DNA of 64,000 nucleotides, taken from NCBI RefSeq assembly GCF_056746865.1, contig NZ_CM163382.1. The stretch is one strand, 5' to 3'. The notes beneath the pieces are model-generated. The model saw nothing but the letters and a program-made list of their open reading frames with translations, did no database searches and was not told the origin of the DNA. The position numbers were made by a program, and so were the translations under genes. Positions 3,489 to 54,025 of the stretch are shown here, piece after piece (positions within the stretch are counted from its first letter, which is position 1; each line of letters opens with the position of its first letter).

Positions 3489-4691
3489 ATGACGCAATAC
3501 TCCTCTCTCCTTCGTGGTCTTGCAGCGGGTTCTGCATTTTTATTCCTTTTTGCCCCAACGGCATTCGCGGCGGAACAAACCGTTGAAGCGCCGAGCGTGG
3601 ATGCGCGTGCATGGATTTTAATGGATTACGCCAGCGGTAAAGTGCTGGCAGAAGGCAATGCGGATGAAAAACTGGACCCCGCGAGCCTGACTAAAATCAT
3701 GACCAGCTATGTGGTTGGGCAGGCGCTTAAGGCCGATAAGATTAAACTCACCGATATGGTGACGGTCGGTAAAGATGCCTGGGCGACGGGAAATCCGGCA
3801 CTGCGTGGTTCATCGGTAATGTTCCTTAAACCGGGCGATCAGGTTTCGGTGGCAGACCTGAACAAAGGTGTGATTATCCAGTCCGGTAATGACGCCTGTA
3901 TTGCGCTGGCCGATTACGTTGCCGGGAGCCAGGAGTCATTTATTGGTCTGATGAATGGTTATGCCAAAAAACTGGGTCTGACCAACACTACCTTCCAGAC
4001 GGTGCACGGTCTGGATGCGCCGGGGCAGTTCAGTACCGCGCGCGATATGGCATTGCTGGGTAAAGCATTGATCCACGATGTGCCGGAAGAGTATGCCATT
4101 CATAAAGAGAAAGAGTTCACCTTCAACAAAATTCGACAGCCTAACCGTAACCGTCTGCTATGGAGCAGCAATCTGAATGTTGATGGCATGAAGACAGGAA
4201 CCACGGCAGGCGCGGGATATAATCTGGTTGCTTCGGCTACCCAGGGCGATATGCGTTTGATCTCCGTAGTACTGGGTGCGAAAACTGACCGTATCCGTTT
4301 TAATGAGTCTGAGAAATTATTGACCTGGGGTTTCCGCTTCTTTGAAACCGTGACGCCAATTAAACCTGATGCCACCTTTGTGACTCAGCGCGTCTGGTTT
4401 GGTGATAAGAGCGAAGTGAATCTCGGGGCAGGCGAAGCGGGCTCAGTGACCATACCGCGTGGGCAGCTGAAAAACCTGAAAGCGAGCTACACGTTAACGG
4501 AACCGCAGCTTACCGCACCGCTGAAAAAAGGTCAGGTTGTCGGCACCATTGATTTCCAGCTTAACGGTAAATCCATTGAGCAGCGTCCGCTGATCGTGAT
4601 GGAAAATGTGGAAGAGGGGGGATTCTTTGGTCGGATGTGGGATTTCGTGATGATGAAATTCCATCAGTGGTTCGGCAGCTGGTTCTCTTAA
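3489..4691 (+). CDS. dacC: D-alanyl-D-alanine carboxypeptidase PBP6 (400 aa)
   Basis: ORF 3468-4691; start at [10 protein letters not shown]; signal peptide; SxxK-type PBP sequence. Confidence 0.9.
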
Positions 4692-48836: not shown

Positions 48837-50779
48837 CGCCTTTGCTCGAATTAAAGGATATTCGTCGCAGCTATCCTGCCGGTGATGAGCAGGTTGAGGT
48901 GCTGAAGGGCATCACCCTCGATATTTATGCTGGTGAGATGGTGGCGATTGTCGGCGCTTCGGGTTCCGGTAAATCGACCCTGATGAATATTCTCGGCTGC
49001 CTGGATAAGGCCACCAGCGGCACCTATCGCGTAGCCGGTCAGGATGTTGCCACGCTGGACGCCGATGCGCTGGCGCAACTGCGTCGCGAACACTTCGGCT
49101 TTATTTTCCAGCGTTACCATTTGCTTTCGCATTTAACCGCCGAGCAGAACGTTGAAGTACCCGCCGTCTATGCCGGTCTTGAGCGGAAACAGCGGCTGCT
49201 TCGCGCCCAGGAGTTGCTGCAACGACTGGGGCTGGAAGACCGTACAGAGTATTATCCGGCACAGCTTTCGGGTGGTCAGCAACAGCGCGTCAGCATCGCG
49301 CGGGCATTGATGAACGGCGGTCAGGTAATTCTTGCCGATGAACCAACCGGCGCACTGGACAGCCATTCTGGCGAAGAGGTGATGGCGATCCTGCATCAGC
49401 TGCGTGATCGCGGGCATACGGTGATTATCGTTACCCACGATCCGCAGGTCGCTGCTCAGGCCGAGCGGGTGATCGAAATTCGCGACGGCGAAATTGTGCG
49501 CAATCCTCCCGCCGTTGAAAAAGTGAATGTTGCTGGCGGGACGGAACCTGTTGTCAACACGGCCTCTGGCTGGCGGCAGTTTGTCAGTGGTTTTAACGAG
49601 GCGCTGACGATGGCATGGAGGGCGCTGGCAGCGAATAAAATGCGTACTTTACTGACCATGCTGGGGATTATTATCGGTATTGCGTCGGTGGTTTCAATTG
49701 TCGTGGTGGGCGACGCCGCCAAACAAATGGTGCTGGCGGATATTCGTTCTATTGGTACGAATACTATTGATGTCTATCCCGGGAAAGATTTTGGCGATGA
49801 CGATCCGCAATATCAGCAGGCGCTGAAGTACGATGACTTAATCGCCATCCAAAAACAACCGTGGGTCGCCTCAGCCACACCTGCCGTCTCGCAAAACCTG
49901 CGCCTGCGTTATAACAATGTTGATGTTGCTGCCAGTGCCAATGGCGTGAGCGGCGATTATTTTAATGTCTATGGCATGACCTTCAGTGAAGGGAACACCT
50001 TTAATCAGGAGCAGCTGAACGGTCGTGCGCAGGTGGTGGTGCTCGACAGTAATACTCGCCGCCAGCTTTTCCCCCATAAAGCAGATGTGGTTGGCGAGGT
50101 GATTCTGGTCGGCAATATGCCCGCCAGAGTCATTGGTGTGGCGGAAGAAAAACAGTCGATGTTTGGTAGCAGTAAAGTGCTGCGTGTCTGGCTACCTTAC
50201 AGCACGATGTCCGGGCGAGTTATGGGCCAGTCGTGGCTGAACTCCATTACTGTCAGGGTGAAAGAAGGATTTGACAGCGCCGAGGCGGAACAGCAACTCA
50301 CGCGTTTACTTTCACTGCGCCACGGTAAGAAGGATTTCTTTACCTGGAACATGGACGGCGTCTTGAAAACCGTTGAAAAGACCACACGTACTTTACAACT
50401 GTTTCTTACGCTGGTGGCGGTGATTTCGCTGGTGGTGGGCGGTATTGGTGTAATGAATATTATGCTGGTGTCAGTGACCGAGCGGACGCGGGAAATTGGC
50501 ATTCGCATGGCTGTAGGTGCGCGAGCAAGCGATGTTTTGCAACAGTTCCTGATCGAAGCCGTGCTGGTTTGCCTGGTCGGTGGCGCGTTGGGAATAACAC
50601 TGTCACTGTTAATTGCTTTCACCTTGCAGCTTTTCTTACCCGGCTGGGAGATTGGTTTTTCACCTTTGGCGCTGCTGCTGGCGTTTCTCTGCTCGACGGT
50701 CACCGGGATTTTATTTGGCTGGTTACCCGCACGAAATGCGGCACGACTGGATCCAGTAGATGCTCTGGCACGAGAGTAA
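48833..50779 (+). CDS. macB: Macrolide efflux ABC transporter MacB (ATPase-permease fusion, 648 aa)
   Basis: Walker [10 protein letters not shown], signature LSGGQQQR, C-terminal FtsX-like permease. Confidence 0.9.
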
Positions 50780-50789
50780 TTTTGAGATA

Positions 50790-50822
50790 AAAATGCCAGC
50801 CGATCGGGCTGGCATTTTGCCT
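50790..50822. terminator. Bidirectional terminator between macB and cspD
   Basis: AAATGCCAGCC GATCG GGCTGGCATTT perfect inverted repeat flanked by T/A runs. Confidence 0.65.
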
Positions 50823-50850
50823 TTAGGATGTACACAATGAGACAGAAGAG

Positions 50851-51075
50851 CTATGCGACTGCCGCTTCTACTTCGACGGGCACAATAACACTGGCGTGAT
50901 TGCCTTTTGGCCCCTGGTGGACATCAAACTGAACGGATTGTCCAGCTTTTAGCGTTCTGTAACCATCCATCTGAATGGTGGAATAATGAGCGAAAATATC
51001 TTCGCCGCCGCCTTCAGGGCAGATGAAACCAAACCCTTTGGCATTGTTGAACCACTTAACAGTACCCTTTTCCAT
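50851..51075 (-). CDS. cspD: Cold-shock-domain protein CspD (74 aa)
   Basis: ORF with start at MEKGTVKWFNNAKGFGFI (RNP1 motif). Confidence 0.9.
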   Translation of the reverse strand: MEKGTVKWFNNAKGFGFICPEGGGEDIFAHYSTIQMDGYRTLKAGQSVQFDVHQGPKGNHASVIVPVEVEAAVA

Positions 51076-51397
51076 GCTTCGACATCCTTCGCAAATCTTA
51101 TACAAGTAAGATGGAATAAACCGGGGTCAGAGAGGGGGCTGTTCAAAACCTCGCCAACTCTAGAAATACAATTTAGAGAATTAGGGCGAGCCGTCAAGCA
51201 TTTGACAGGGGCCAGGGGGCAGGTATGAATCAAAAATTTGAAGCAGTTAACGCTATTGACAGGAATGTGACAGATGTCGCTGATGCCAACGATAGATGAT
51301 AGTTATCTATCATGTGGAGTAGATTGGTCAGGCAAATAAGCTCTTGTCAGCGGCAGGGCGTTCTGCCGATAACCGTAACCGAAGATGATAACTGACA

Positions 51398-51718
51398 ATG
51401 GGTAAAACGAACGACTGGCTGGACTTTGATCAACTGGCGGAAGAAAAAGTTCGCGACGCGCTAAAACCGCCATCTATGTATAAAGTGATATTAGTCAATG
51501 ATGATTACACTCCGATGGAGTTTGTTATTGACGTGTTACAAAAATTCTTTTCTTATGATGTAGAACGTGCAACGCAATTGATGCTCGCTGTTCACTACCA
51601 GGGGAAGGCCATTTGCGGAGTCTTTACCGCCGAGGTTGCAGAAACCAAAGTGGCGATGGTGAACAAGTACGCGAGGGAGAATGAGCATCCATTGCTGTGT
51701 ACGCTAGAAAAAGCCTGA
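51398..51718 (+). CDS. clpS: ClpA adaptor ClpS (106 aa)
   Basis: ORF translation [43 protein letters not shown]. Confidence 0.9.
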
Positions 51719-51748
51719 ATGCAGGCATAAAAATTGGGGGAGGTGCCT

Positions 51749-54025
51749 ATGCTCAATCAAGAACTGGAACTCAGTTTAAATATGGCTTTCGCCAGAGCGC
51801 GCGAGCACCGTCATGAGTTTATGACCGTCGAGCACTTGTTACTGGCGCTGCTCAGTAACCCATCTGCCCGGGAGGCGCTGGAAGCGTGTTCTGTGGATTT
51901 GGTTGCGCTCCGTCAGGAACTGGAAGCCTTTATTGAACAAACCACACCCGTTCTGCCTGCCAGTGAAGAGGAGCGCGACACACAGCCGACGCTGAGTTTT
52001 CAGCGTGTACTGCAACGTGCGGTCTTCCATGTCCAGTCCTCCGGTCGCAATGAGGTTACCGGTGCAAACGTTCTGGTCGCTATTTTTAGCGAACAGGAGT
52101 CGCAGGCGGCATATCTGTTGCGTAAACATGAAGTCAGCCGTCTCGATGTGGTGAACTTTATCTCTCATGGCACGCGTAAAGACGAGCCGACACAGTCTTC
52201 TGATCCTGGCAGCCAGCCAAACAGCGAAGAACAAGCTGGTGGGGAGGAACGTATGGAGAATTTCACGACGAACCTGAATCAGCTTGCGCGCGTGGGAGGA
52301 ATCGACCCACTGATTGGTCGTGAGAAGGAGCTGGAGCGTGCTATTCAGGTTCTCTGCCGTCGCCGTAAAAACAACCCGCTGCTGGTGGGGGAATCTGGTG
52401 TCGGTAAAACCGCGATTGCGGAAGGTCTTGCCTGGCGAATTGTTCAGGGCGATGTGCCGGAAGTGATGGCTGACTGTACGATTTACTCTCTCGATATCGG
52501 TTCTCTGTTAGCGGGCACAAAATATCGCGGCGACTTTGAAAAACGTTTTAAAGCGTTGCTCAAGCAGCTGGAGCAGGATACTAACAGCATCCTGTTTATT
52601 GATGAGATCCACACCATTATCGGTGCGGGTGCAGCCTCTGGTGGCCAGGTCGATGCGGCTAACCTGATCAAACCGCTGCTCTCCAGCGGTAAAATTCGCG
52701 TAATTGGTTCGACAACCTATCAGGAGTTCAGCAACATTTTCGAGAAAGACCGTGCTCTGGCGCGTCGCTTCCAGAAAATTGATATTACTGAACCGTCGAT
52801 CGAAGAAACTGTTCAAATCATCAATGGCCTGAAACCGAAGTATGAAGCGCACCACGACGTGCGTTATACCGCAAAAGCGGTGCGTGCAGCGGTAGAGCTG
52901 GCGGTGAAATACATTAACGATCGTCATCTGCCGGATAAAGCCATTGACGTTATCGACGAAGCGGGCGCTCGCGCACGCCTGATGCCGGTAAGCAAACGCA
53001 AGAAAACCGTTAATGTGGCGGATATTGAGTCCGTGGTGGCCCGTATTGCGCGCATTCCAGAGAAGAGTGTTTCGCAGAGTGACCGCGATACCCTGAAAAA
53101 CCTCGGCGATCGCCTGAAAATGCTGGTCTTCGGTCAGGATAAAGCCATTGAGGCGCTGACTGAAGCCATTAAGATGGCGCGTGCAGGTTTAGGTCACGAA
53201 CATAAACCGGTCGGTTCGTTCCTGTTTGCAGGCCCTACCGGGGTCGGGAAAACAGAGGTGACGGTACAGCTTTCGAAAGCTTTGGGCATTGAGCTTCTGC
53301 GCTTTGATATGTCCGAGTATATGGAACGCCATACCGTCAGCCGTCTGATTGGTGCGCCTCCGGGATACGTTGGTTTTGATCAGGGCGGTTTGCTGACTGA
53401 TGCGGTCATCAAGCATCCACATGCGGTGCTGCTGCTGGACGAAATCGAGAAAGCGCACCCGGACGTGTTCAATATTCTGTTGCAGGTGATGGACAACGGT
53501 ACGCTGACCGATAACAACGGACGCAAAGCGGACTTCCGTAACGTGGTATTGGTGATGACCACCAACGCTGGGGTACGAGAAACTGAGCGTAAATCGATTG
53601 GTCTTATCCACCAGGACAACAGTACCGATGCGATGGAAGAGATCAAGAAGATCTTTACGCCGGAGTTTCGTAACCGTCTCGACAACATTATCTGGTTCGA
53701 TCATCTCTCCACCGACGTGATCCATCAGGTAGTGGATAAATTCATCGTCGAGTTGCAGGTTCAGTTGGATCAGAAAGGTGTTTCTCTGGAAGTGAGCCAG
53801 GAAGCGCGTAACTGGCTGGCCGAGAAAGGTTACGACCGGGCAATGGGCGCACGTCCGATGGCGCGTGTCATCCAGGACAACCTGAAAAAACCGCTCGCCA
53901 ACGAACTGTTGTTTGGTTCGCTGGTGGACGGCGGTCAGGTGACGGTTGCGCTGGATAAAGAGAAAAATGAGCTGACTTATGGATTCCAGAGTGCACAAAA
54001 GCACAAGGCGGAAGCAGCGCATTAA
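51749..54025 (+). CDS. clpA: ATP-dependent Clp protease chaperone subunit ClpA (758 aa)
   Basis: ORF 51734-54025 with start at [11 protein letters not shown]; two AAA modules ([16 protein letters not shown]). Confidence 0.9.

Follow-up and report, generated by a model that had tools for sequence, protein, structure and literature searches.

The window analysed here is a stretch of 64,000 nucleotides of contig NZ_CM163382.1 (NCBI RefSeq assembly GCF_056746865.1), read on one strand. The genes around the feature under study are arranged in the order macB (+), cspD (-), yljB (+), clpS (+) and clpA (+). The original prediction had pointed to an inverted repeat, GATAGAT-N7-ATCTATC, about 90 bp before the clpS start in the divergent region between cspD and clpS. 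The repeat proved to be exact, with the spacer GATAGTT, and its end lies 86 bp from the clpS ATG. Its location is the 322-bp spacer between cspD and clpS. Many E. coli chromosomes match this spacer at 100% identity, the window being E. coli DNA, and in the RefSeq annotation the spacer also contains yljB. Papers citing this small ORF report it as validated and translated, with a homologue in Salmonella. The left arm of the repeat is composed of the last yljB codons (GAT AGA) and the first base of the TGA stop. When the partly symmetric spacer is included, the dyad amounts to 8/10 around A51301. The coordinates of the features are collected in Table 1.

Table 1. Features of the cspD-clpS region in window coordinates, with mean identity to E. 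coli over ten other Enterobacteriaceae
Feature	Position	Strand	Description	Mean identity
cspD	50851-51075	-		
yljB	51225-51299	+	RefSeq annotation; 24-codon ORF for a small protein of 24 aa; 3' end overlaps the left arm	
Conserved block	51237-51252		CRP-like, TTTGA-N6-TAACG	1.00
Conserved block	51266-51281		CRP-like, TGTGA-N6-TCGCT	0.82
Left arm GATAGAT	51291-51297		Proposed core-type integrase half-site B of attB	
Inner block ATAGATGATAGTTATCT	51292-51308		Host-conserved inner block, 17 bp	0.95
Identity block ATGATAGTTAT	51296-51306		11-bp identity block of attB and attP; published PICI 'att site core'	
Spacer GATAGTT	51298-51304		Proposed 7-bp overlap (strand-exchange) region O	
Right arm ATCTATC	51305-51311		Proposed core-type half-site B'	
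GGTAGATT	51318-51325			0.86
Flanking spacer DNA	51326-51380			0.50
clpS	51398-51718	+	ATG at 51398	

By count alone the repeat is unremarkable. Perfect 7-bp inverted repeats with a spacer of 0-12 occur 111 times in the window, compared to 49 +/- 5 in mononucleotide shuffles, and 9 of them have a spacer of exactly 7. About 0.56 comparable repeats are expected per 322-bp intergenic region, and each heptamer of the repeat is single-copy in the window. To this extent the caution that the arms are short and that chance is possible was well placed; in practice, chance is refuted by the junction data given below. The significance of the repeat thus derives from comparative evidence and not from the repeat by itself.

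The 322-bp spacer was used as a megablast query against 5,426 complete E. coli genomes. It was found in 5,424/5,426 genomes and was non-contiguous in 368 of the 5,424. In these genomes the alignment broke off or resumed at positions 51312 and 51296, within the repeat. The integrase gene described below was present at a nucleotide identity of at least 90% in 361 genomes of the complete E. coli set and the attL junction in 365/5,426. These three independent counts (368, 361 and 365) are concordant and give an occupancy of approximately 6.7% of the complete E. coli genomes. About 5,056 genomes have the empty site and about 365 an occupied one, with the insertion always within 51296-51306. The agreement of the counts leaves little room for other elements at the site. 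PICI att sites are claimed in PMC6092414 not to be used by prophages.

The islands at the occupied sites are 9-11 kb long and encode a tyrosine integrase, AlpA, a primase and capsid or terminase proteins. In NZ_HG994851.1, yljB is followed by the genes of a tyrosine integrase, an AlpA-type regulator, an icd-like protein, a DUF4222 protein, a primase, an SSB and capsid-related proteins, with clpS found 10.8 kb further on. By annotation, this is the gene content of a PICI, an element of about 9-15 kb with int, alpA, a primase/replication module and packaging or capsid-remodelling genes but without a full phage structural set. The tyrosine integrase adjoins attL, its gene starting 174 bp past the C' arm, and has both a Phage_integrase domain (PF00589, E 2.5e-18) and an Arm-DNA-bind_3 domain (PF13356, E 1.1e-16); the next gene encodes AlpA (PF05930). 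A search by sequence for a relative with a solved structure found none.

Four islands with differing cargo were compared base by base: 9.1 kb (an O157:H7 strain), 10.5 kb (IHE3034), 10.8 kb (NZ_HG994851.1) and 11.1 kb (2014C-3307). The junctions were the same in all four. The attL sequence is ...CCAAC GATAGAT GATAGTT ATtTATCA GTTAGTG... and the attR sequence is ...GC TATAAAT GATAGTT ATCTATCA TGTGGAG..., where the first base of the arm varies among the islands, (t/g)ATAAAT. The left arm GATAGAT is kept in attL and is replaced by TATAAAT in attR, and the right arm ATCTATC is kept in attR and is replaced by the island version, ATTTATC, in attL. A direct repeat of ATGATAGTTAT bounds both ends of the four islands. 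The limits of the exchange are G51295 on the left and C51307 on the right, which are A and T, respectively, in the island-derived arms. The identical junctions indicate that exchange is confined to these 11 bp. Furthermore, yljB is intact in attL after integration, and GATAGTT is unchanged across attB, attL, attR and the reconstructed attP.

This sequence and locus have been published. Table S1 of Fillol-Salom 2018 (ISME J 12:2114, PMC6092414) lists two PICIs, EcCIIHE3034 and EcCI18098, with the att core ATGATAGTTAT and the att gene cspD-clpS. According to the same table, EcCIIHE3034 occupies 920272-930825 of NC_017628.1 (10.5 kb), and in the IHE3034 record the 11-mer is found at 920272 and at 930815-930825, exactly the published boundaries. 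The match of both the core and the coordinates indicates that the window carries a known PICI attachment site in its unoccupied form. The repeat is very probably the unoccupied attB, termed attC in the PICI literature, of one E. coli PICI clade whose 9-11 kb satellites insert between yljB/cspD and clpS. The attachment-site role is therefore already in the literature, and the repeat is explained by it rather than new. The window site differs from the EcCIIHE3034 and EcCI18098 entries in being empty, and Table S1 gives only the 11-bp core. The main texts of the literature searched contained nothing relevant on island insertion at cspD-clpS, the key entry being in the supplementary table. Table S1 also records the virulence-regulator gene rdgR in the published cspD-clpS islands. 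In the part of PMC6092414 covered here, the functional int-attP test belongs to the work on EcCICFT073, which has a different att site, and no helper-phage-induced excision or transfer is reported for the cspD-clpS elements.

The original prediction of a regulator site for clpS or cspD was borne out in part. A specific protein-recognition site, as opposed to noise, is indeed present; the evidence of exact insertions in about 365/5,426 genomes and of the published att site points to the tyrosine integrase of a mobile element, rather than a regulator of clpS or cspD, as the protein that recognizes it. None of the results obtained speaks for a transcription factor.

The attP sequence reconstructed from the junctions is (c/t)TATAAAT-GATAGTT-ATTTATCAG. 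At the sequence level its layout is like that of attB, with inverted arms TATAAAT and ATTTATC (ATAAAT / ATTTAT) around the identical GATAGTT. Read toward the centre, the four half-sites of attB and attP are GATAGAT, GATAGAT, TATAAAT and GATAAAT. Both attP arms contain a direct-repeat module, TTGTTCG three times and then GGTGTAGTTAAT twice, located at -131 to -74 in the P arm and at +91 to +158 in the P' arm. Two further copies of the form GTGTTCG are present at +19 and +29, and the arm layout is conserved in three islands. Moreover, a metagenome contig of 1,953 bp, OOBX01002772.1, which ends 53 bp past the core, has the P and P' arms joined through O, as in an intact attP; the junction may stem from an excised or packaged form or, equally, from tandem islands. 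Of the four matches in the metagenome scan for attP, the other three were attributed to chance in AT-rich DNA. The exact attP had no match in the viral contigs of IMG/VR.

One arm repeat also coincides with an entry in the published table. CGGTGTAGTcAATGGTGTAGTTAATT is found in the P' arm of island sequence L002 at 4540-4563 and, in L003, in the corresponding P arm. It agrees with what Table S1 of PMC6092414 lists as the 'att site core' of EcCIDI14, with one differing base in the P' copy. In the same table, the core listed for the yejM-luxR PICIs also has a tandem TGTAGTTA-type repeat. These Table S1 entries, for EcCIDI14 and for the yejM-luxR PICIs, may represent arm repeats or tandem islands rather than crossover cores.

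The target choice of the integrase family was evident from its close relatives. Integrases approximately 80% identical in DNA (79-83% in protein) are located instead at roxA/ycfD-phoQ or at tqsA, two other published PICI sites. The tqsA integrases, on the E. coli contigs DAGGPS010000028.1 and ABAQKM010000005.1, have protein identities of 83% and 79%, respectively, and are next to pntB with the core ATAACAGCA. An integrase of 83% identity at tqsA indicates that target choice switches within about 17% protein divergence. The attL of the roxA/ycfD-phoQ, tqsA and cspD-clpS sites has a common island-side arm, (A/T)TTTATC, at an equal distance from int. The host-side arms of the two related att sites, GAAGTAT and TAAGAAT, are merely loosely similar, indicating that a perfect inverted repeat is not required by the integrase family.

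When the three sites were aligned on the C' arm TTTATC, the published identity blocks extended from -10 to 0 (cspD-clpS), from -8 to +1 (GGACATATTT) and from -10 to -2 (ATAACAGCA). Their intersection is exactly 7 bp, which at cspD-clpS is GATAGTT. We infer the position of the overlap from these intersecting blocks, and any window of 6-8 bp within the 11-bp block would formally be possible.

In the sites of lambda-type heterobivalent integrases, inverted core-type half-sites flank an overlap of 6-8 bp and arm-type sites are distant. By analogy with these tyrosine recombinases, the two 7-bp arms of the repeat would be core-type binding sites for two integrase protomers, and the spacer GATAGTT would be the overlap region, at the edges of which the strands would be cut and exchanged. 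The TTGTTCG and GGTGTAGTTAAT repeats of the attP arms may be arm-type sites or sites for accessory proteins that assemble the intasome. Integration restores the host sequence as far as 51306 toward cspD and from 51296 onward toward clpS, so that cspD and clpS keep their immediate upstream DNA. The likeness to lambda attB (B-O-B') and attP (P-C-O-C'-P') lies in the inverted putative half-sites, the shared putative 7-bp overlap, the arm-binding domain of the integrase and the repeated arm sites of attP. However, the sequence is unrelated to that of lambda, alpA rather than xis is the excision-control gene, and the element is a satellite and not a phage.

The element also resembles the P4-type satellites and the AlpA-controlled CP4-57 integrase, in that a large integrase with an N-terminal PF13356 domain is followed by an AlpA-family gene and by icd-like and primase genes. 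The typical targets of P4-family elements are 3' ends of tRNA genes; the cspD-clpS site, by contrast, is intergenic. PICIs and P4 are argued to be distinct families in PMC6092414.

Tandem repeats were observed at a tRNA gene elsewhere in the window. Two full copies of a 179-bp sequence and a partial third lie at 54448-54863, adjoining tRNA-Ser(GGA) at 54845-54932 (-), and the 3' end of the tRNA-Ser gene is duplicated at the start of each. Their appearance is that of remnant att sites, stacked one after another, left by elements that integrate into this tRNA gene. In NZ_HG994851.1, another integrase island is found just past clpA, on the tRNA-Ser side.

The conservation of the repeat in the Enterobacteriaceae was evaluated by alignment. 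For 19 other Enterobacterales loci, about 400 bp upstream of clpS were fetched and read; two of them (L013 and L024) aligned poorly. The alignment itself covered approximately 200 bp upstream of clpS in 14 other Enterobacterales, with loci fetched via ClpS, and identity was calculated over the ten other Enterobacteriaceae. The expectation that the repeat would be conserved was satisfied for its inner 17 bp, which are 95% identical against a background of about 50% (Table 1). It failed for the outer bases of the arms. Only Escherichia has the full 7-bp arms: most genera have A in place of G51291, and 51309-51311 are variable. Among the integrase protein homologues, those of at least 94% identity were named only from E. 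coli, and those of at most 62% identity came from other genera. As a correlation, this distribution fits a role of the outer arm bases in recognition by the integrase.

The conservation is mainly at the level of DNA. The yljB frame (...KFEAVNAI...) is kept in several genera and is shifted in Citrobacter werkmanii and Leclercia, where the nucleotides are unchanged; loss of the frame with retention of the DNA argues for conservation of the DNA more than of the protein. In addition, the conservation of the inner 17 bp extends to genera in which no member of the close integrase clade was seen, which indicates another, host-side reason for the sequence. Presumably, a host constraint on the inner repeat is what makes it a stable target for integration.

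Other blocks of the spacer are conserved as well. GGTAGATT is nearly invariant in the Enterobacteriaceae at a fixed distance from the att block; within it, TAGATT is a -10-like hexamer, for which IHE3034 has TAAATT. Two CRP-like sites lie inside the yljB ORF (Table 1). The TTTGA-N6-TAACG site is invariant in the ten other Enterobacteriaceae and nearly so as far as Yersinia, Serratia and Rahnella. Relative to the cspD start, the two sites are centred at -83.5 and -112.5. These are reportedly the positions of CRP sites I and II of cspD (Uppal 2014).

The possibility was considered that the conserved block is a host cis-element, acting on clpS as an operator or promoter element or on cspD as an upstream element. 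We regard this reading as tentative and, on balance, doubtful. It is compatible with the role of the repeat as an att site and could be the reason why the sequence is conserved well enough to be an integration target. In its favour, in the ten other Enterobacteriaceae, the inner block and the nearly invariant TAGATT both stand out from the background of about 50%, with no indels between them. Coding by yljB does not explain this conservation, since Citrobacter and Leclercia lack the frame and its stop codon precedes 51300-51308. Additionally, the resemblance of the nearby conserved blocks to two CRP sites of cspD suggests that the spacer is dense in regulatory DNA. However, the symmetric part of the conservation is limited to AGAT...ATCT, and the outer bases of the arms vary by genus.

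A weak sigma-70-like candidate clpS promoter can be drawn with a -35-like ATGATA (51296-51301), a gap of 18 bp and a -10-like TAGATT (51320-51325), from which transcription would start near 51332. It matches the consensus at only 8/12 positions, and a scan for promoters and terminators was blank at the repeat, the only promoter-like site being the cspD promoter. Comparison with mapped clpS and cspD promoters, which had been put forward as a check, likewise gave nothing at the repeat: the data of Kim 2012 contain no + strand start between cspD and clpS (51161-51398). In that study, the cspD start is at 921,899 in NC_000913, equivalent to window position 51161, so that the inner block is centred at -140, and the sole start assigned to clpS is at 50845 (+) (921,583 in NC_000913, 368 reads). 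Starts at 51493, 51563 and 51696 were assigned to clpA. The transcript from 50845, which begins just past the macB terminator, runs antisense through cspD, is assigned a leader of 553 nt and would include yljB and the repeat. A search of the literature for a mapped clpS promoter found none.

No known factor consensus fitted the repeat, which also argues against a host cis-element. The Fur box (GATAAT GATAAT C ATTATC) was superficially similar, being GATA-rich and arranged forward-forward-reverse, and ATGATAGTTAT matches the Fur centre ATGATAATCAT at 9/11 positions. However, the Fur units are hexamers and those of the repeat are heptamers. The best ungapped match to the Fur box was 11/19, a score that 580 window positions equalled or exceeded, and Fur was rejected. 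A by-eye comparison with the consensus sequences of IHF, ArcA, NsrR, PhoP, DnaA and Lrp did not produce a fit.

A more specific and rather unlikely proposal is that ATAGATGATAGTTATCT and the invariant TAGATT, which follows it at 12 bp, jointly form an undescribed and deeply conserved enterobacterial cis-element that the PICI integrase has adopted as a landing pad. The element would be an operator or condition-specific promoter of clpS-clpA, or a distal element of cspD. If this is true, an inserted island of 10 kb would separate clpS from the cspD-side regulatory DNA and from the start at 50845 in about 7% of E. coli strains, and the expression of ClpS and ClpA would be altered.

It is very improbable that the repeat acts as an RNA hairpin in a yljB-clpS leader, with an effect on stability, processing or translation. 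In its favour, the reported translation of YljB requires a + strand transcript whose start precedes 51225 and which probably continues through the repeat. A clpS start on this strand is listed at 50845, and the RNA can form a stem of 9 pairs. However, 51280-51325 folds only weakly, at -10.2 kcal/mol (z = -1.6), which was equalled in 9 of 200 shuffles. The absence of a T-run after the stem indicates that it is not a terminator, and an Rfam search of 50700-51900 with E values up to 10 found nothing at the repeat. Moreover, differences between genera in the right arm are not matched by compensatory ones in the left arm. A functionless chance repeat is scarcely credible, common as short-spacer repeats of this kind are in the window, in view of the base-exact coincidence with the junctions of hundreds of islands and with the published att core, the independent occurrence of the same arm-spacer-arm layout in attP, and the strong conservation of the inner block.

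The Rfam search of the same interval gave two matches away from the repeat. One was a sub-threshold match to the cspA thermoregulator at 50787-51180 (-), covering the cspD leader and coding sequence, with 41.6 bits against a gathering threshold of 78. It probably reflects the paralogy of cspD with cspA. The other, a match to an sRNA, was rejected as spurious.

The most probable reading, an empty PICI attB, gives an anonymous palindrome a name in the annotation, that of an empty PICI attachment site at cspD-clpS, which marks a difference between strains of one satellite island of 9-11 kb. To the published entry, the present analysis adds the arm-overlap-arm anatomy of attB and attP, the modules of arm repeats, the occupancy of approximately 6.7% and the conservation of the inner block. 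The last of these raises a small question on the regulation of clpS and cspD. Engineered PICIs could be integrated here, the site offering a defined and neutral landing pad. The arm-overlap-arm reading provides a testable model of target recognition by this integrase clade and may explain the other target sites that are used by integrases of 79-83% identity.
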